From the IMG/VR virus record IMGVR_UViG_2778261344_000007, positions 1 through 4,692 of that record: a stretch of DNA of 4,692 bases. The stretch is one strand, 5' to 3'. Numbering within the stretch: position 1 is the stretch's first letter; each line of letters starts with the position of its first letter. Origin of the DNA: a virus. Its lineage: Duplodnaviria; Heunggongvirae; Uroviricota; Caudoviricetes. The notes below the pieces were generated by a model that saw nothing but the letters and a program-made list of their open reading frames with translations, was not told where the DNA came from and ran no database searches. Made by a program: the position numbers and the translations under genes. Positions 1 to 4,692 of this stretch are shown piece by piece.

Positions 1-53
1 CTTGCCCACTCGTTATATTTTTCCGCATTAATGGCTTTCTGTGTATTTAACAT
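1..53 (-). CDS. hypothetical protein, 5' end only (17 codons; gene runs off the window start)
   Basis: Minus-strand ATG at 51-53 preceded by GGAGG (plus 61-65, read as CCTCC) with a 7-nt spacer. Frame stays open to position 1 (MLNTQKAINAEKYNEWA...). Too short to name. Confidence 0.4.
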   Translation of the reverse strand, partial: MLNTQKAINAEKYNEWA

Positions 54-158
54 AAATATACCTCCAGTTAAGGATTAAATTTTATTTACAGTGCTGAACT
101 TAATTATTCAGATTTGGATTATGCTTTCTCTTCACGAAGTTCCGATTGTTAATTTGGC

Positions 159-581
159 TCACAACAGCACCTTCTGAAAATTACCCTGATAGAAAGCCAG
201 TACACGCTGCATAGCTTCGCTCTTCCGGCACTCGCTACAGATTATGTTCAGACGCCTGTCGTAGCGGCGTATTTCTCCGTCTGGTAATGACCAGATAAGA
301 TCCGGATCAACCACAACCGGTTTCTTCACCTTTGCCCTTGATAGTTTTTTGCGGGCGTTTTGCCAGTCTTTACGCGCCTGCTCAGACGGGAATAATCCGT
401 AGCCTGAATTGTAAACATCACCACTGGCGACCAGTTCTCTGGCGAGAGTGCTTATGTAATACCTTGATGCACCGGTTTTAGCCTCCAGAGCCCGTAACGT
501 CTCGCGACCGCTCAGACGTACAAGTTCAACAACCTGCCCTTTAATTTTTTCCCGCTCTTCTGGTGTAAATACTTTTGCCAT
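159..581 (-). CDS. Ren-like protein, 140 aa (N-terminal winged-helix-like region, C-terminal ECRKSEAMQRVLAFY motif)
   Basis: ORF-track frame 159..596; start placed at ATG 579-581 because GGAGG lies 5 nt upstream (plus 587-591). The C-terminus ...CSECRKSEAMQRVLAFYQG resembles my recollection of the phage lambda Ren C-terminus (...KECRQSAAMKRVLAVYG). Position distal to the replication genes matches lambda ren. Recollection not verified by search. Confidence 0.7.
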   Translation of the reverse strand: MAKVFTPEEREKIKGQVVELVRLSGRETLRALEAKTGASRYYISTLARELVASGDVYNSGYGLFPSEQARKDWQNARKKLSRAKVKKPVVVDPDLIWSLPDGEIRRYDRRLNIICSECRKSEAMQRVLAFYQGNFQKVLL

Positions 582-596
582 AGGTGCCTCCGGCAA

Positions 597-1358
597 TCAC
601 TTTTCCGACACAATACGACTGGAGGAATCGAAAATCTGTCGAACAATATCCCGGTGCTTGTTCAGCTCCCGCAGCGCGGCGCAGACTCGCTCCCACTTCT
701 GGACATGATTTTTCGCCCGACGCAGTTCGCGGTTTGCCATATGCAGCGATGGTAAAACCAGGTCATCCGCTCGCGTTTCAGTAAACGATGGCAGCGACTG
801 CACAATGTCCGCCACCGTTTCTGTTTTAATATCTTCCTGTGTTGCAGCCTCCTGTACTGGTAACGCAACACCTGTGGGCTGAGGAAAGGCCTTACCATCA
901 GTTTCCGCTACCGATGCTGCTTTCGGCTCTGCTGGTAAATTATCGCCCGGTATGCAGTAACGAAATTTACCGTTCTGGTTTACGCGAATCAGGCGTCCTT
1001 TGCTGATAGCCATTGCCAGCGTTGAAGCTACTTTGCGTGATGTGGTACCGAACAATGTAGCCAACTCATCCGCCGTTTGTGGGCCACGTTGTTCAATCGT
1101 CGCGGTTAAATCGCACTCTGAGATTTTCGCTACTGTTGCCATGGTGGTTTCTTCCGGCAGCTCTGCCGGCGCTGGCTGTTCCTGCTGAACGTTGTTATCA
1201 GCCACGCGCCAGGTGTATACGCTTTTATCAACGAAGCCAGCCTTTTTCAGTTCCCACAGCTCGTTCAGCACTTCTTCTCGACTGATATCAAGTCGCGTAG
1301 CCAGTTCTACCGACGTGGCTTTTCCCATCGCTTTCAGTGCGTCAAAAACGGTCTCCAT
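597..1358 (-). CDS. prophage protein with two winged-helix-like domains, an acidic/Pro-rich linker and a basic helical C-terminus (DUF1627-like), 253 aa
   Basis: ORF-track frame 597..1409; start placed at ATG 1356-1358 (METVFDALK...) because GGGAGG lies 8 nt upstream (plus 1367-1372), whereas the longer start at 1409 has no RBS and would overlap ydaV by 29 nt. Two HTH-like segments are readable ([30 protein letters not shown] and [32 protein letters not shown]). Family assignment is from memory. Confidence 0.75.
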
Positions 1359-1380
1359 TAAAATTTCCTCCCGGTAAAAA

Positions 1381-2127
1381 TTACTTCTCAATACCTGGCT
1401 GACCAACATTCGGGCGCCAGCTCTCCCAGTTAAAATTCACCCAGCGCCCGCCGTTCATGGTCATGCGATCCATAATCCGCTCGCCGAGCAATGTTTTCAT
1501 GGCCTCATAGTTCAGGTTTGTCAGCATCCCCACGCTGCGCATTGACGCTGTCCGGCGATCAACAATCTGGTGCAGTACCACCTGCTCGTTTTTCGTCTCG
1601 CGCTGAATACCAATTTCATCAAGAACCAGCAGATCAACTTCGCACAGTTCCCGCAAAAATTTTTCGCCTGACTGCCCGTCGTCATAGCTGGCGTGCAGGG
1701 CGCTCATAACATCAGCCACGGTAACCACAATCACTGTCTGGCCATCTTTCAGCAGGCGATTCCCGATAGCCGCCGCCAGATGGTTTTTTCCGGTACCAGG
1801 TTTTCCGCTGAACGCGAAATTTGTGCATCCGGTAACCAGTTCGTCAGCGATAGATTTCGCCTGACTCAACGCGTATCGCTGGCCGTCGTTCTGCACCTGG
1901 TAATTCGCAAACGAGCATTTGCGGTGCAACGGCTGTATGCCGGAGCGATTCAGGATTTTTTCCACCCGCAACTGACGATTCTGACGGTTGATCTCCTCAC
2001 AACGTTTCTGGCCTTCTGCAAGTTGCCACTCGCGCCACTCCGCCACCGTCCTGAATGGCGCGGTTACATGTGGCGGGGCCAGTCTGCGGATACGTTCCAG
2101 AACGCCGCCTGTCGCAATATTTTTCAT
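1381..2127 (-). CDS. ydaV: DnaC/IstB-like AAA+ ATPase, putative replicative helicase loader (lambda P analogue by position)
   Basis: 248-aa ORF with Walker [12 protein letters not shown] and Walker [10 protein letters not shown] readable in translation. ATG 2125-2127 with AGGGGG upstream; starts 6 nt after the ydaU stop. Length and context match Rac prophage YdaV as I recall it. Confidence 0.88.
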
Positions 2128-2133
2128 GGTCTG

Positions 2134-2922
2134 TTACCCCCTGAAGCCTGGCGGGATCGCACTGTCCGGAAACGAGACGGTGTTAATCTGTCGGAGCAAC
2201 GTCTCTGGCCGAACACCTTTCGGCGCGAACAAGCCCTGGTATTCATTGGCGATGCTGTGTCGAATCACCTGCTCAGGTGAAAAACCCTGCTGGCGGAATT
2301 TTTCCAGCTCCCGTATCGCCCCGTTAGCGCCCTGCTCCGTTCGAATCGGTTTTCGCAATGCCTGCCTGAACTGAACCCACTCATGCCAGAGTGTTTCCGG
2401 CAACCAGTCAGGCAGCTCGATAGCCTCCGGTTCGAATTTTTTAGACGCTCGTTTTTGGCGAGGGGGATTTAGGGGGAGATAAGTATTTATATCTTCCTCT
2501 TTCTCTTCCTCTGGTAACGCTTTTTGATCCGTTTTTGTAACGCTGGCAGCGTTACCTTTTCGTTTCAGTTCTCGTATTTTTGTTACTCTCTCGTTTGTAA
2601 CCGCCCGTTTTTTAGAGCTTTTCCCGTTATGGCGCTCAAAGTTAGGAAGCGACAACACACCATTAGTTTCGACCAGCCATCCAACCTGAATTAACGCATC
2701 AGCAAAACCAGCCATAAAAGTGATGCGATCTATTGCACTTTTTGTAACGCCGCGAGCGTTACACTCTGCGTTACCGTCTATCATTTGTTGATCCGCCCAT
2801 GCCCAGAAGCGAATGACTTTCCCTAATGCGGCATCTGGATCAATATTCAGAATCTCAGCAAGCCTGAATATTTCCGGCTTATCCGGCGTAATAACTTCGA
2901 GCTTTATCCAGTTTGAAGCCAT
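2134..2922 (-). CDS. ydaU: putative replication initiation protein, YdaU family (lambda O analogue by position)
   Basis: 262-aa ORF, ATG 2920-2922 with AGGTGA about 7 nt upstream. Two-domain layout with a charged low-complexity linker (KSSKKRAVTNERVTKIRELKRKG...EEEKEED) whose coding DNA carries the palindrome/T-tract cluster. Lies directly upstream of the DnaC-like gene. Symbol assigned by synteny and length class, not by search. Confidence 0.8.
   Translation of the reverse strand: MASNWIKLEVITPDKPEIFRLAEILNIDPDAALGKVIRFWAWADQQMIDGNAECNARGVTKSAIDRITFMAGFADALIQVGWLVETNGVLSLPNFERHNGKSSKKRAVTNERVTKIRELKRKGNAASVTKTDQKALPEEEKEEDINTYLPLNPPRQKRASKKFEPEAIELPDWLPETLWHEWVQFRQALRKPIRTEQGANGAIRELEKFRQQGFSPEQVIRHSIANEYQGLFAPKGVRPETLLRQINTVSFPDSAIPPGFRG
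2514..2622. other. candidate replication origin: cluster of GTAAC/GTTAC half-sites with T-tracts inside the ydaU linker-coding DNA
   Basis: GTAAC at 2514, 2537 and 2597, GTTAC at 2551 and 2582; T4-T6 runs at 2521, 2532, 2557, 2577, 2608 and 2619. Just upstream lie GGGGGATTTAGGGGGAG (2462-2478) and an AT-rich/polypyrimidine stretch (2479-2510). Confidence 0.35.
2536..2556. repeat. palindrome copy 1: TGTAACGC-TGGCA-GCGTTAC (inside ydaU, codons 123-130 GNAASVTK)
   Basis: Arms of 8 bp read directly; the reverse complement matches. Confidence 0.85.
2743..2763. repeat. palindrome copy 2: TGTAACGC-CGCGA-GCGTTACA (inside ydaU, codons 54-61 CNARGVTK)
   Basis: Perfect 8-bp arms, 5-bp centre, read directly. 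Confidence 0.85.
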
Positions 2923-2934
2923 TTGTTTTCACCT

Positions 2935-2955
2935 TGTAACGCTCGCAGCGTTACA
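2935..2955. repeat. palindrome copy 3: TGTAACGC-TCGCA-GCGTTACA (non-coding, ends 2 nt before the ydaU Shine-Dalgarno)
   Basis: Perfect 8-bp arms read directly; located in the 77-bp ydaT-ydaU spacer. Confidence 0.85.
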
Positions 2956-2964
2956 TTTAACTGA

Positions 2965-2986
2965 TACCGAACAAAACAGTTCGGTA
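2965..2986 (-). other. hairpin TACCGAAC-AAAACA-GTTCGGTA in the ydaT-ydaU spacer (8-bp stem, 6-nt loop, no U-tract)
   Basis: Perfect 8-bp inverted repeat read directly; lies between the ydaT stop (3000) and palindrome copy 3. Confidence 0.4.
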
Positions 2987-2999
2987 CGATTAATTTCAA

Positions 3000-3422
3000 T
3001 CAATGCACTACGACAGAATCGCTAGGAGAACCGCCGCCGCTGAAATGTGCTTTACGGTAAACGGCCTGGACTGCATCATCATGCGCATCAATTGCCGTAC
3101 TCAGTGCATCCTGTGCCGCCAGTAATGCACGGCGTTCCAGGGTATCGAAGATGCAGAGTCGGTGACGCAGCTCGCGAGGAAGAATTGCCAGAACCGCAGG
3201 GATCAGTTTCTGAATTTTTTCCCTTTGCGCATTCGTTTCACCTTTCAACCAACGATGATAGATATTCTGCTGATTGTTCCAGTCCTTGCCTGGTACCAGG
3301 GGCAATTCGCCGCCCCCCTGGCGCAGATATTCTTCAGTAATTGCGTTAGCGACCCACGCCTGCCCTTTTTCGGCTGCCAGGGCTAACAACACTGATTCGA
3401 TGTGCTCATGCTTGATTTTCAT
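3000..3422 (-). CDS. ydaT: YdaT-family protein (CII-like regulator of Rac-type prophages; historically annotated as a toxin)
   Basis: 140-aa ORF beginning MKIKHEHIESV..., which I recognise from memory as YdaT of the E. coli Rac prophage (unverified). ATG 3420-3422 overlaps the ydaS TGA 3419-3421 (ATGA coupling); GGGAG lies 7-8 nt upstream. Confidence 0.88.
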   Translation of the reverse strand: MKIKHEHIESVLLALAAEKGQAWVANAITEEYLRQGGGELPLVPGKDWNNQQNIYHRWLKGETNAQREKIQKLIPAVLAILPRELRHRLCIFDTLERRALLAAQDALSTAIDAHDDAVQAVYRKAHFSGGGSPSDSVVVH

Positions 3423-3429
3423 GAATCAA
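3412..3429. promoter_or_regulatory. perfect inverted repeat TTGATT-N6-AATCAA centred on the ydaS stop / ydaT start overlap
   Basis: TTGATT 3412-3417, ttcatg 3418-3423, AATCAA 3424-3429, read directly. A weaker relative (ACGATT-N6-AATCAA, 2986-3003) overlaps the ydaT stop. Confidence 0.4.
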
Positions 3430-3673
3430 CTCCCATCAGCTTTTTCGTAGTAGTTTTATTTCTGCCAATAGTTAAAATTGCATCGGCAGAAAATAATCCG
3501 TTTGATGCATGAGCGATTTTTTCAGCGTAATTTGTTTCGCCGGTATATTCTGTGCGAGGCAATTTACCGTTATCCATCCATTTGTAGATTGCTCTTTGGC
3601 TGACACCACAAACGTCGGCCACAACAGAAACGCGAACAGTTTTGATTACATCTTCAAGTGTTTTCTGGTTCAT
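3419..3673 (-). CDS. ydaS: Cro-like small HTH regulator (YdaS-like), 84 aa
   Basis: ORF-track frame 3419..3745; start placed at ATG 3671-3673 (MNQKTLEDV...) because GAGGGTGA lies 5 nt upstream, whereas the ATG at 3745 has no RBS and sits inside the repressor promoter. HTH-like segment VADVCGVSQRAIYKWMDNGKLP. First gene of the operon, divergent from the repressor. Symbol by synteny. Confidence 0.75.
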   Translation of the reverse strand: MNQKTLEDVIKTVRVSVVADVCGVSQRAIYKWMDNGKLPRTEYTGETNYAEKIAHASNGLFSADAILTIGRNKTTTKKLMGVDS

Positions 3674-3697
3674 ATCACCCTCACAATGTGAACTTTG

Positions 3698-3732
3698 AGT
3701 ACATGCTATAACAGAACTGACAGTACATTCAA
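3698..3732 (-). promoter_or_regulatory. candidate early-right promoter (PR-like) for the ydaS operon: -35 TTGAAT (plus 3727-3732), 16-bp spacer, extended -10 TGtTATAGC (plus 3705-3713)
   Basis: Read on the minus strand; would give a leader of about 25 nt containing the ydaS RBS. The -10 is imperfect (ends in C). Confidence 0.4.
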
Positions 3733-3753
3733 GAGCGAATATCATTGAACTTA
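3717..3753 (+). promoter_or_regulatory. candidate repressor-maintenance promoter (PRM-like): -35 CTGACA 3717-3722, 17-bp spacer, -10 TATCAT 3740-3745; predicted start at or beside the racR ATG (leaderless mRNA)
   Basis: Hexamers and spacing read directly; the -10 ends 7 nt before the ATG at 3753 and no RBS is present. Lambda cI mRNA from PRM is leaderless (established), which gives a precedent. Confidence 0.45.
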
Positions 3754-4172
3754 TGGTTCATGAAGATAAAGCGCGTAAAGAGTTCGCCAGTAGGCTTGCG
3801 CTAGCCTGTGAAAACGCTGGTTATGAACAACATGGAAGGCAGGCAGAAATTGCCCGTCGAATGAAATTAACACCAAAAGCGGTTAGCAAATGGTTTAATG
3901 GTGAAACAATTCCTCGCCGAGAGAAATTAAGGGAATTAGCAACACTCATTGGAACAACACCAACCTATCTTTTGGGAGAGGATACAGAAGAAAGTGGACA
4001 GATACGTTTCTATCAGGAGTTAAATCCAAGACAAAAAATCATCATTGACCTTCTGGACGAGCTCCCTGACAGTGAGACAGATGAACTTTTAAAAACTCTT
4101 GAGGAGAAAAAACAGAAGTACAATGCAATTTACGAAGAGTTAGCACGAAAGAAAAAACAAAAAGCCTCTTAA
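3753..4172 (+). CDS. racR: CI-like prophage repressor, XRE-family HTH with a charged helical C-terminus (RacR-like), 139 aa
   Basis: ORF with HTH segment QAEIARRMKLTPKAVSKWFNGETIPRREKLRELATLIG, divergent from the cro-like gene. No Shine-Dalgarno precedes the ATG at 3753, but a good -10 ends 7 nt upstream. Symbol is positional (racR-ydaS-ydaT-ydaU-ydaV order). My memory of K-12 RacR length differs, so this may be a variant repressor. Confidence 0.8.
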   Translation: MVHEDKARKEFASRLALACENAGYEQHGRQAEIARRMKLTPKAVSKWFNGETIPRREKLRELATLIGTTPTYLLGEDTEESGQIRFYQELNPRQKIIIDLLDELPDSETDELLKTLEEKKQKYNAIYEELARKKKQKAS

Positions 4173-4182
4173 ACCAGCATAA

Positions 4183-4220
4183 ATCCGGTAGCGTCCCCCT
4201 CCGGGTTTGTGCTTCACTTT
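4183..4220 (+). terminator. weak candidate terminator after racR: stem ATCCGG / CCGGGT (4183-4188 and 4201-4206, one G-U pair), 12-nt loop, then T-rich TTGTGCTTCACTTT
   Basis: Hairpin begins 11 nt after the racR stop. The stem is short, the loop long and the T-run interrupted, so this is weak. Confidence 0.25.
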
Positions 4221-4247
4221 ATCCCGTCTCATTTTTTTATACATAAA

Positions 4248-4291
4248 ATGTACTTAAAGTACTTTACAATGATGAACACAAAGTACATTAT
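4248..4291 (+). promoter_or_regulatory. operator/promoter cluster downstream of the repressor (OL/PL-like): inverted site 4248-4262 containing palindrome GTACTTAAAGTAC, direct site GAACACAAAGTACAT 4274-4288, candidate -35 TTTACA 4263-4268 and -10 CATTAT 4286-4291
   Basis: Motif copies read directly. Hexamers are moderate matches with a 17-bp spacer, oriented toward the small ORFs at 4464 onward. Confidence 0.4.
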
Positions 4292-4463
4292 ATACCTACC
4301 AACCCACCCCGCCCCACAGAACGCCGGGCAATACTTCGAGTTACCAGGCAGTGGTCAGGGGTTAAGTAGCCAGCCCGAGGCGTATGAACATGACGGCGGG
4401 ATTCAAATTTTGCAGTGCAGCAGTTAGTTCCGCCACCCGGCGTTAAGGGGAAATGAGGTCAAC

Positions 4464-4616
4464 ATGGATACTATCGATCTTGGCAACAACGAATCTCTGG
4501 TATGTGGCGTGTTTCCCAATCAGGACGGCACATTCACCGCCATGACGTATACCAAAAGCAAATCGTTTAAAACCGAAGCTGGCGCGCATCGCTGGTTAGC
4601 AAGAAACTCCGACTAA
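4464..4616 (+). CDS. small early-left protein, 50 aa (MDTIDLGNNESLVCGVFPNQDGTFTAMTYTKSKSFKTEAGAHRWLARNSD)
   Basis: ATG 4464-4466 with GAGG (4455-4458) 5 nt upstream; below the ORF-track size cutoff. Position corresponds to the small ydaG/ydaF genes next to racR in Rac, but I cannot say which. Confidence 0.6.
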   Translation: MDTIDLGNNESLVCGVFPNQDGTFTAMTYTKSKSFKTEAGAHRWLARNSD

Positions 4617-4627
4617 TGAGGTTGACG

Positions 4628-4692
4628 ATGGAATTTAAAGATTTACCTCCTTCAATCCAGGAGATTGCAGCACACACACTTCGTCATCGTCT
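4628..4692 (+). CDS. small protein, N-terminal 21 codons (MEFKDLPPSIQEIAAHTLRHR...), continues past the window end
   Basis: ATG 4628-4630 with GAGG (4618-4621) 6 nt upstream, starting 11 nt after the previous stop; frame open to the window end. Confidence 0.5.
   Translation, partial: MEFKDLPPSIQEIAAHTLRHR

Follow-up and report, generated by a model that had tools for sequence, protein, structure and literature searches.

Operator region of a probable HK022/933W-type immunity switch in a Rac-like prophage of Escherichia coli

In phage lambda, three OR sites are common to CI and Cro, and the OL operators are bound by the same repressor. The lambda operators are 17 bp long and unrelated in sequence to those described here, OR1 and OR2 are spaced by 24 bp, and the promoters PR and PRM do not overlap, their starts being about 82 bp apart, with OR2 at about -42 of PRM in an activating position; the cI mRNA from PRM is leaderless. 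The HK022/933W-type arrangement is also textbook knowledge, having been described since 1989 and dissected biochemically for 933W.

In the GenBank annotation of HK022 (X16093), three 15-bp oR sites (TGAACTTATGGTTCA, GGAACTGATAGTACA and TGAACTTATGGTTCA, all of the type TGAAC-N5-GTWCA) are arranged with their centres 24 and 33 bp apart and with the third centred on the ATG of the repressor gene, the cro-cI intergenic region is 79 bp long, and two oL sites (TGTACTATTGGTACT and TGAACTTTAAGTACA), 24 bp apart, flank the -35 of pL. HK022 CI, 235 residues long as translated in this analysis, carries an S24 (LexA-like) C-terminal domain, the seat of RecA-stimulated self-cleavage and of oligomerisation, and, as stated in PMC8053113 with reference to Carlson & Little 1993, occupies neighbouring sites cooperatively and forms OL-OR loops. 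The 933W system likewise has three sites at OR and two at OL, and its OR3 has the ATG of cI at its centre (PMC3317979, PMC5977221). Its repressor recognizes a rotationally symmetric operator of 15 bp in which positions 2-5 are critical, position 3 is A or T, position 6 is T or C and position 1 is unimportant, and it protects two symmetric 6-bp blocks; the mutation K46A abolishes specific binding, and K42 and K46 are modelled as base contacts (PMC3317979). In the record of phi24B, annotated as similar to 933W, the site centres are 24 and 32 bp apart and OR3 is on the cI ATG. Furthermore, PaaR2 of prophage CP-933P (PMC8630535) and DicA of Qin (PMC3441716, PMC10448788) are short HTH repressors with a helical tail and no self-cleavage domain. 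DicA-type repressors are without a cleavage site and respond to antirepressor (PMC10448788).

The window, that is, the whole stretch of 4,692 nucleotides analysed here (positions 1 to 4,692 of IMG/VR record IMGVR_UViG_2778261344_000007), belongs to a Rac-like, ttcA-integrated prophage of E. coli, and its positions 3674-3760 are judged from homology and conservation, with a probability of roughly 85%, to be the OR region of a lambdoid immunity switch of the HK022/933W type. A literature search found no study of this particular prophage switch. The features on which the assignment is based are a symmetric 15-bp operator with G-W-A-C at positions 2-5, a repressor with a homologous DNA-binding domain, a homologous Cro, and the geometry, namely OR centres 24 and 32-33 bp apart (3696, 3720 and 3753 in the window, hence 24 and 33 as in HK022), a third site on the repressor ATG and a pair of OL sites, spaced by 24 bp, on either side of the -35 of a PL-like promoter (Table 1). 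The intergenic region of 79 bp given by the first-pass annotation holds (3674-3752, the Cro-like gene starting at 3673 and the repressor gene at 3753) and has the same length as that of HK022, whose pR -10 and -35 are also in the same relative places. The window differs from HK022 in the C-terminal part of the repressor, which lacks S24, and in its surroundings, because this prophage, built on a Rac backbone, possesses a CII analogue of YdaT type, in contrast to HK022 with its Nun and its CII of lambda type. Moreover, HK022 is reported to possess an OL3 and a site located downstream of OR at 300 bp (PMC8053113), and no such additional site with arms of at least 9/10 was found in the window. 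It shares the critical operator positions (G, A/T, A, C at 2-5 and T/C at 6) with 933W, which differs in a preference for C as the first base and for GTAC arms in OR1, in an OR2-OR3 spacing of 32 instead of 33 bp and in having a CI that is S24-type, SOS-inducible and reportedly non-cooperative (PMC3317979).

Table 1. Features of the switch region, in window coordinates; operator and promoter assignments are predictions
Feature	Position	Strand	Remarks
Cro-like protein, 84 aa	3419-3673	-	RefSeq start identical; 62% identity to HK022 Cro over 73 aa
Shine-Dalgarno of Cro-like gene	3676-3682	-	GAGGGTG; anti-SD duplex -6.1 kcal/mol
O1 (OR1 equivalent)	3689-3703		TGAACTTTGAGTACA; 15-bp imperfect palindrome; arms 10/10
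Cro-side promoter (PR-like) -10	3703-3710	-	TAGCAT (3708-3703, 18-bp spacer) or TATAGC (3710-3705, 16-bp spacer)
O2 (OR2 equivalent)	3713-3727		AGAACTGACAGTACA; arms 9/10
Repressor promoter (PRM-like) -35	3717-3722	+	CTGACA; promoter scan, 10/12, 17-bp spacer; CTGA(C/T/A)A in relatives
Cro-side promoter (PR-like) -35	3727-3732	-	TTGAAT; TTGnnT conserved; HK022 pR -35 equivalent is TTGACT
Repressor promoter -10	3740-3745	+	TATCAT; ends 7 nt before ATG
O3 (OR3 equivalent)	3746-3760		TGAACTTATGGTTCA; centre is the A of the repressor ATG (3753)
Repressor, 139 aa	3753-4172	+	HK022/933W-CI-like HTH_3 N-terminal domain, linker, DicA-like helical C-terminal tail
Hairpin, possible weak terminator between repressor gene and OL/PL	4176-4213	+	-19.4 kcal/mol, z = -4.8
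OL-a	4249-4263		TGTACTTAAAGTACT; adjoins the -35 of the leftward early promoter, 1-bp overlap
PL-like promoter	4263-4291	+	TTTACA / 17 bp / CATTAT; found by promoter scan
OL-b	4273-4287		TGAACACAAAGTACA; in the spacer of the PL-like promoter, 2-bp overlap with the -10

The gene order of CP-933P, in which the repressor gene is divergent from a Cro-like gene followed by the gene of the CII-like YdaT, is the same in the window, the YdaT box TTGATT-N6-AATCAA is common to both, and the CP-933P repressor also controls a PL-like promoter, as the repressor of the window may do through putative operators at its own. However, the operator sequences are unrelated, those of CP-933P being GTTTAGTAA-type repeats (PMC8630535) and the DicA operator Oc being TTGTTAGTCATAACTAACAA (PMC3441716), the Cro-like protein is unrelated to DicC and barely related to YdaS, the intergenic region of CP-933P is 97 bp, and in the window no toxin-antitoxin genes follow the repressor gene. 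RacR and YdaS of the K-12 Rac prophage and DicC were considered and rejected as homologues of these regulators; the window has a different immunity type on a Rac backbone.

A scan of viral contigs gave at first 99-100% identical loci alone, and a scan of genome contigs with a single protein gave at least one Shigella locus, near-identical, and a diverse comparison set was obtained by a re-query with an S24-type relative as the first sequence. The profile comparison comprised 86 related loci; column conservation was taken from 24 non-redundant relatives, and that of the PL-like promoter from 36.

The first-pass annotation had noticed the motif GAAC-N4-AGTACAT (GAACNNNNAGTACAT) twice, with an offset of 24 bp, and a degenerate third copy over the repressor start codon. 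These copies are exact at 3690-3704 and 3714-3728 and have two mismatches at 3747-3761, spanning the ATG at 3753, and two more were found downstream of the repressor gene, an exact one at 4274-4288 and one with a single mismatch on the minus strand at 4248-4262. At up to two mismatches the motif occurs 8 times against 0.84 expected (0 of 200 shuffles gave as many as 8), and AGTACAT by itself occurs 4 times against 0.30 expected. The view of the operator as a direct repeat rather than a classic symmetric site, unusual for a CI/Cro switch, had to be given up, since each copy is a 15-bp imperfect palindrome TGWAC-N5-GTWCA, the same type of operator as that annotated for HK022 in GenBank and demonstrated biochemically for the 933W repressor (PMC3317979). 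The look of a direct repeat came from the GTAC core, because GTAC is its own reverse complement. Palindromes with arms of at least 9/10 number five in the window against 0.38 expected, and three have perfect arms (10/10) against 0.022 expected. It is true that the three best copies of the 15-mer (3690, 3714 and 4274) share one orientation and have in every case GAAC as the left and GTAC as the right arm, an asymmetry consistent inside the window, and that for the switch of CP-933P direct as well as inverted repeats have been considered (PMC8630535), so that tandem asymmetric 15-mers bound head-to-tail, a non-classical CI/Cro operator, could be imagined; such an operator is nevertheless hardly credible. 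The orientation bias is gone in the relatives, in which O1 is TGAAC..GTTCA (HK022 and the related loci L127 and L128), the right arm of O2 alternates between GTACA and GTTCA, O3 is TGAAC..GTTCA everywhere and OL-a is TGTAC..GTACT. In addition, the 116 half-sites pooled from related loci (T 81%, G 100%, A/T, A 100%, C 100%, T/C 97%) give the consensus T-G-W-A-C-Y, with G2, A4 and C5 invariant on both arms and a variable operator centre, whereas the terminal T of the earlier motif is poorly conserved after O2. This conservation agrees with the base preferences measured for the homologous 933W repressor, which binds and protects its 15-mer symmetrically (PMC3317979).

The symmetric sites keep their places at -57 (O1), -33 (O2) and 0 (O3) relative to the ATG in all of the 86 related loci, the position of O1 being that of an HK022 oR site annotated in X16093. 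O1 spans the last base of the Cro-side -10 and the predicted start of that promoter. O2 occupies the Cro-side promoter spacer and contains the -35 of the repressor promoter in its centre; its first base is never T (5 distinct variants) and its centre, CTGAnA, is much better conserved than that of O1. O3 extends between -10 and +8 of the repressor promoter and is identical in sequence to OR1 and OR3 of HK022. The right arm of O3 is coding (ATG GTT CA), and its conservation could partly reflect protein constraint. From the same fact it might be argued that O1, O2 and the OL pair are the sole real operators and that O3, whose right arm GGTTCA belongs to the codons ATG GTT CAT, is a by-product of conserved N-terminal codons (Met-Val-His/Gln) with no regulatory role; O3 also has A at position 3 in both arms, a weaker variant for the 933W repressor (PMC3317979). 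This is very improbable, because all relatives have TGAAC unchanged as the left, non-coding arm while the two bases adjoining it vary, the ATG-centred site is annotated as OR3 in both HK022 and phi24B, and OR3 occupancy is reported to repress PRM in 933W (PMC5977221, PMC4848623). Inside cro and ydaT, only 8/10 matches to a further HK022-like operator were found (e.g., 3510-3524), compatible with chance.

Both divergent promoters overlap the repeated operator, and the compact repressor/Cro control region recognized in the first-pass annotation is supported. The -35 hexamers are indeed present at the places proposed (3717-3722 and 3727-3732); however, they are not back to back in the lambda sense, since the promoters are interdigitated and each -35 lies inside the spacer of the other promoter, in the left-to-right order -10 (cro), -35 (repressor), -35 (cro) and -10 (repressor). 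The column profile of the relatives has the signatures TAnnnT and TTGnnT for both promoters with an unconstrained stretch between. For the repressor -10, the columns are T9 A9 T7 n0 a5 T9 (24 non-redundant relatives), i.e., a TAnnnT signature in which T1, A2 and T6 are invariant and whose distance to the ATG is 7 nt in all the relatives inspected, the variants including TATAAT, TATTAT, TATGAT, TATAGT and TACAGT. The Cro-side -10 is weak, its TAGCAT and TATAGC versions each fitting 8/12 promoter positions, and the Cro-side promoter was not called by the promoter scan of the window; TATAGC is at the position annotated for the HK022 pR -10, 2 bp upstream of TAGCAT, and in the TAnnnT at 3708-3703 T1, A2 and T6 are invariant among relatives. 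The Cro-side transcript is predicted to start near 3696. Unlike in lambda, the -35 of the repressor promoter lies under O2, and the promoters are interdigitated with some 57 bp between their predicted starts, so RNA polymerase can probably occupy only one promoter at a time. With its centre near -33 of the repressor promoter, where it overlaps the -35, O2 has a placement that does not fit lambda-style activation from -42.

The repressor gene was said to have no ribosome-binding site, and this is borne out, since the best upstream anti-SD duplex is -2.2 kcal/mol and misplaced, as against -4.1 to -10.7 kcal/mol for the other seven genes. No in-frame start codon exists in the repressor ORF upstream of 3753, the first possible start. 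Because the -10 ends 7 nt before the ATG and an SD is lacking, the repressor mRNA is likely to be leaderless, and for PaaR2 of CP-933P, a related O157 prophage, a leaderless cI-like mRNA was demonstrated by 5' RACE and N-terminal sequencing (PMC8630535). It could be objected that the repressor of the lysogen is made from a longer transcript with an upstream origin, such as a reverse promoter in cro activated by the CII-like YdaT, and that TATCAT/CTGACA does not serve as maintenance promoter. At 3412-3429 there is a perfect YdaT box (TTGATTTTCATGAATCAA), in Rac and CP-933P YdaT bound to such a box switches on a reverse promoter serving the repressor gene (PMC11879457), and the proposed -35 is buried in O2. 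An establishment promoter is, however, compatible with a maintenance promoter, as lambda has both, and a leadered mRNA would have neither an SD nor an upstream in-frame start codon. Moreover, the three key positions of TAnnnT are fixed 7 nt from the ATG in the 24 non-redundant relatives although the neighbouring bases drift, and the longer transcript as the source of the repressor in the lysogen is improbable.

The second group of operators is located downstream of the repressor gene, with centres at 4256 (OL-a) and 4280 (OL-b). The PL-like promoter there faces DUF1391, kil, recET, xis and int in the RefSeq context, and a comparison of 36 non-redundant relatives shows its TTTAC and CAnnnT to be conserved. 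A distal operator pair 24 bp apart is found in 82 of the 86 related loci at a distance of 494-3100 bp, always at a TTTAC...CAnnnT promoter whatever cargo genes intervene. In the window the OL-OR distance is about 530 bp, so looping is possible. The hairpin between the repressor gene and OL/PL stands just after the repressor stop codon; its U-tract is poor and it was not called by the terminator scan.

As for the proteins, the Cro-like start at 3673 is also where the HK022 Cro alignment begins, and an extended ORF of 108 aa (3419-3745) was dropped for the 84-aa form on account of the RefSeq start, the SD and that alignment. The repressor has a Pfam match to HTH_3 and none to Peptidase_S24, the domain which is present in HK022 CI and in the Raoultella and Klebsiella relatives. 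Its N-terminal domain is 46% identical to HK022 CI over 99 aa and, over 73 aa, 51% identical to the CI of phi24B, with which it has K42 and K46 in common; the recognition helix, TPKAVSKWFNG, does not vary among 12 relatives. In its short form, HTH_3 with a helical tail of about 50 aa and no S24, it resembles DicA and PaaR2; C-terminal helices are predicted at 92-103 and 106-138 by a structure model of moderate confidence, the tail is homologous to that of DicA (28% identity over residues 30-137, tail included), and phrog_5736 matches over the full length. It is not a DicA equivalog, scoring 56.4 bits against the 101-bit cutoff of NCBIfam NF007257, and the operators TGWAC-N5-GTWCA are unrelated to Oc (PMC3441716). 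Sequence and fold searches of the PDB gave only generic HTH_3 matches, with P22 C2 best by sequence, and nothing specific for the C-terminal tail. The DicA-like short tail in place of the S24 self-cleavage domain is the one unusual feature of the switch.

On the basis of the sites, their symmetry and conservation, the homologies and the promoter signatures, the following scheme of binding, affinity order, transcription starts and induction may be proposed. Dimers of the HTH repressor and of the HK022-like Cro would bind the three OR sites, O1 and O2 covering the start, -10 and spacer of the Cro-side promoter, O2 also the repressor -35, and O3 the start of the repressor promoter, while the OL pair would cover the PL-like promoter driving the kil-recET-xis-int side. 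Repressor at O1 (and O2) and at OL is supposed to silence the lytic promoters, occupancy of O2 and O3 would limit the repressor's own synthesis, and Cro would shut off the repressor promoter through the same sites. Because the repressor has a DicA-like helical tail and no S24, induction is probably caused by antirepressor or dilution and not by RecA-stimulated cleavage. HK022 CI is described as highly cooperative (PMC8053113) and 933W CI is reportedly not (PMC3317979). From such behaviour nothing can be extrapolated to a repressor whose C-terminal domain is a different one.

The general importance of the locus is small, as the lambdoid OR/OL arrangement of HK022/933W immunity type is already known, and its value is mainly in annotation, namely in exact assignments for the operators, promoters and start codons of a Rac-like prophage, a very common one, that is carried by pathogenic E. 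coli and Shigella, and in the correction of the asymmetric-operator idea. It is also of interest for modular evolution, since one and the same set of DNA-binding domain, Cro and five operators is combined in some cases with a self-cleaving S24 tail and in others with a DicA-like one. Prophages with this set but different tails are predicted to be cross-immune and yet to be induced by different routes, a point relevant to the stability of prophages in Shiga-toxin-producing strains. It is possible, though rather doubtful, that in a prophage of Rac type recombination has joined a DNA-binding domain of HK022 specificity, its Cro and the full operator set to an oligomerisation tail that is DicA-like and non-cleavable. 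If the short tail supports pairwise cooperativity at 24-bp spacing and OL-OR looping, a common prophage would confer SOS-insensitive immunity against phages of HK022 immunity, and the operator architecture would be conserved independently of the oligomerisation/induction module; the interdigitated promoters would in addition make mutual exclusion of RNA polymerase a part of the bistability, replacing the lambda-type activation from OR2. The module lies in the 1,293-bp stretch 3400-4692, of which 80% or more is found in 1,023 of 5,426 complete E. coli genomes.

The region between the Cro-like and repressor genes is the OR region of an immunity switch of the HK022/933W type, with an OL partner 530 bp off, and as such it is ordinary; we give this explanation a probability of about 0.85. 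The window comes from a lambdoid prophage of the Rac type. Many E. coli chromosomes, mostly of STEC, match the stretch 3400-4692 with 100% identity, and 1,023 of 5,426 complete genomes carry 80% or more of this stretch. The prophage of strain 2013C-3277 ends in recE, recT, ralR, xisR and intR, adjoining ttcA (the Rac attachment site), and in the phage record vB_EcoS-666R9, which holds a full morphogenesis gene set, the region is 97% identical.

Features of the window (O1-O3, sites on the OR side; OL-a and OL-b, sites at the PL-like promoter)
Feature	Position	Strand	Sequence or description
O1	3689-3703		TGAACTTTGAGTACA; TGWAC-N5-GTWCA model
O2	3713-3727		AGAACTGACAGTACA; TGWAC-N5-GTWCA model
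O3	3746-3760		TGAACTTATGGTTCA; TGWAC-N5-GTWCA model
OL-a	4249-4263		TGTACTTAAAGTACT; TGWAC-N5-GTWCA model
OL-b	4273-4287		TGAACACAAAGTACA; TGWAC-N5-GTWCA model
Repressor promoter	3717-3745	plus	CTGACA / 17 bp / TATCAT; promoter-scan call
Cro-side -35	3727-3732	minus	TTGAAT; sequence present
PL-like promoter	4263-4291	plus	TTTACA / 17 bp / CATTAT; promoter-scan call
DUF977 gene		minus	
DUF1627 gene		minus	
DnaC-like loader gene		minus	
O-like protein gene		minus	
YdaT-family (CII-like) protein	3000-3422	minus	
Cro-like HTH protein	3419-3673	minus	84 aa
HTH_3 repressor	3753-4172	plus	139 aa
DUF1391 gene	4464-4616	plus	

The first-pass annotation had described a motif, GAAC-N4-AGTACAT, occurring twice in a 79-bp Cro/repressor intergenic region, with a degenerate third copy over the repressor start codon. 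The observation holds: the length was confirmed, the motif is exact at 3690-3704 and 3714-3728, and a copy with two mismatches (3747-3761) covers the ATG at 3753. Two more copies, which had been missed, lie downstream of the repressor gene, one exact (4274-4288) and the other inverted with one mismatch (4248-4262), and they overlap the second plus-strand promoter-like site; at two or fewer mismatches the window contains 8 matches against 0.84 expected. The motif had been taken for a direct repeat unusual for a CI/Cro switch, a reading that is not supported, as every copy is itself two-fold symmetric, conforming to the 15-bp model TGWAC-N5-GTWCA, and as the operator arms of relatives alternate freely between GTAC and GTTC. 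Because GTAC is self-complementary, a run of such symmetric sites can pass for a direct repeat. With this model, five sites in the window have at least 9 of the 10 arm positions (0.38 expected) and three are perfect (0.022 expected). Among relatives the site centres drift and the T that ends the motif shows poor conservation after O2, and 116 pooled half-sites read T (81%), G (100%), A/T, A (100%), C (100%) and T/C (97%), followed by variable positions.

The same arrangement is found in known lambdoid phages. A tblastn comparison of the repressor N-terminal domain with phage records gave HK022 cI (58%) and 933W/phi24B cI (51%); over its first 99 residues the repressor shares 46% identity with HK022 CI, and the Cro-like protein shares 62% with HK022 Cro. 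The annotation of HK022 (GenBank X16093) has exactly the layout of the window, namely three oR sites of 15 bp, spaced 24 and 33 bp from centre to centre, with the cI ATG in the middle of the third, the pR -10 and -35 between and beside them, a pL -35 flanked by two oL sites 24 bp apart, and a cro-cI intergenic region of likewise 79 bp. Its OR sequences are TGAACTTATGGTTCA, GGAACTGATAGTACA and TGAACTTATGGTTCA, so that O3 is identical to HK022 OR1 and OR3, and its OL sequences are TGTACTATTGGTACT and TGAACTTTAAGTACA. The same plan is seen in phi24B, a phage marked in its record as similar to 933W: the centres are spaced by 24 and 32 bp, OR3 lies on the cI ATG, and the arms are CGTAC/TGAAC. The 933W repressor site, defined biochemically, is 15 bp long and rotationally symmetric about the central base pair; binding depends critically on positions 2-5 (G, A or T, A, C) and is tighter with T at position 3, either T or C is found at position 6, and position 1 does not matter (PMC3317979). 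Lysines K42 and K46 of that repressor are modelled as base contacts, and K46A loses all specific binding (PMC3317979); both residues are kept, with the same numbering, in the window repressor, and the recognition-helix region TPKAVSKWFNG is invariant in 12 aligned relatives.

A second scan of viral contigs yielded 80 diverse loci. Equivalents of O1, O2 and O3 lie at -57, -33 and 0 from a conserved ATGGT start in all 86 of 86 loci, and a downstream pair, 24 bp apart and 494-3100 bp from the repressor ATG, occurs in 82 of the 86, always on a TTTAC...CAnnnT promoter whatever cargo intervenes. Between the repressor gene and OL/PL, the window has no cargo (4173-4248), Salmonella has HigB/HigA toxin-antitoxin genes (L004/L005 3053-3755) and Raoultella an AAA-ATPase gene (L007 3308-4750). 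In many relatives of the S24 type (L129-L171) the OL-a equivalent is preceded, about 22 bp upstream, by a third OL-like site, TGAACTTTCCATTCA; this site has no counterpart in the window and its closest relatives, which have two OL sites only.

Both -35 boxes proposed earlier are supported by a gap-free column profile of 24 non-redundant relatives, in which they are conserved and no constraint is seen on the 7 bases that separate the Cro-side -35 from the repressor-side -10. They had been described as back to back; the promoters are instead interdigitated, in the order -10(cro), -35(rep), -35(cro), -10(rep), with predicted starts about 57 bp apart. In the profile, conservation is much stronger in the O2 centre (CTGAnA, the -35) than in the O1 centre, the repressor-side -10 (3740-3745) is invariant at positions 1, 2 and 6 and variable in the middle, and TTGnnT (3732-3727) and TAnnnT (3708-3703) are conserved on the other strand, the HK022 record placing the pR -10 two bases upstream of this TAnnnT. 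In all lineages 7 nt separate the end of the repressor-side -10 from the ATG, and variants of the hexamer include TATAAT, TATTAT, TATGAT and TATAGT. That ATG is the first possible start of the repressor ORF, and the reported lack of an RBS holds, the anti-SD energy of -2.2 kcal/mol being by far the weakest of eight genes (others -4.1 to -10.7). Because of the conserved -10 and the absent SD, the repressor mRNA is most likely leaderless, as predicted earlier. The lambda cI mRNA is a precedent. PaaR2 of prophage CP-933P is also leaderless, as determined by 5' RACE and N-terminal sequencing (PMC8630535).

Repressor dimers on O1 and O2 would occlude the Cro-side promoter and those on the OL pair the PL-like promoter, and the repressor's own promoter would be limited by O2, which covers the -35, and O3, which covers the start. 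The Cro-like protein would be expected on the same sites, as lambda Cro shares those of its repressor (PMC10448788). If the 933W base preferences apply, the two arms of O3, each with A at position 3, would make it the weakest site, and those of OL-a, each with T there, would place it among the strongest. Lambda-style activation from -42 is unlikely, since the centre of O2 lies near -33 of the repressor promoter; filling of O1 might plausibly substitute for such activation by relieving promoter competition. HK022 CI is described, in the part of PMC8053113 citing Carlson & Little 1993, as cooperative on adjacent operators and as looping OL to OR.

HK022 and 933W CI carry an S24 self-cleavage domain, whereas the window repressor does not. 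Its model has a low-confidence linker (78-86) followed by helices 92-103 and 106-138, and these two are homologous to the DicA tail (28% identity overall, tail included); the DicA subfamily model scored under its cutoff against the repressor. DicA-type repressors are not RecA-cleavable and, in Qin, respond to an antirepressor (PMC10448788). Salmonella relatives are 62-65% identical to the repressor, and in Raoultella and Klebsiella an N-terminal domain 62-72% identical is fused to an S24 peptidase domain. Thus one N-terminal domain, Cro and operator set is found with two unrelated C-terminal modules (window 3753-4172; L007, L092-L171, L172, L173), a DicA-like helical tail in the window, Shigella and Salmonella, and an S24 self-cleaving peptidase in HK022, in 933W and in the phages of Raoultella and Klebsiella. 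A domain swap has apparently taken place, which implies a common immunity specificity with differing routes of induction. The papers searched include none on this particular switch; what is new is limited to its being a hitherto unstudied member whose C-terminal domain has been exchanged for a non-cleavable one.

For the Cro-like gene, a mechanical ORF list gave 108 aa (3419-3745, minus), starting inside the operator region; it was rejected, and the 84-aa form starting at 3673 is preferred because SD, RefSeq and the HK022 Cro alignment agree. A protein of the YdaT family takes the CII position. The ydaT start codon (3422-3420, minus) lies within a perfect YdaT box, TTGATTTTCATGAATCAA (3412-3429), which adjoins the stop codon of the Cro-like gene (3421-3419); CP-933P YdaT is described as binding this site, the site of Rac YdaT is nearly identical, and at such a box these proteins activate a reverse, PRE-like promoter of the repressor gene (PMC11879457). 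Directly 3' of the repressor stop, a stable hairpin (4176-4213; -19.4 kcal/mol, z = -4.8) followed by a poor U-tract may be a weak terminator shielding PL from repressor-transcript read-through. About 170 bp separate the PL-like promoter from DUF1391, including a C-rich, then GC-rich untranslated stretch (4300-4440; ccaacccaccccgccccacagaacgccgggc...), part of which is found again in the related loci L003 and L008; a putative nutL lies in the equivalent region of HK022.
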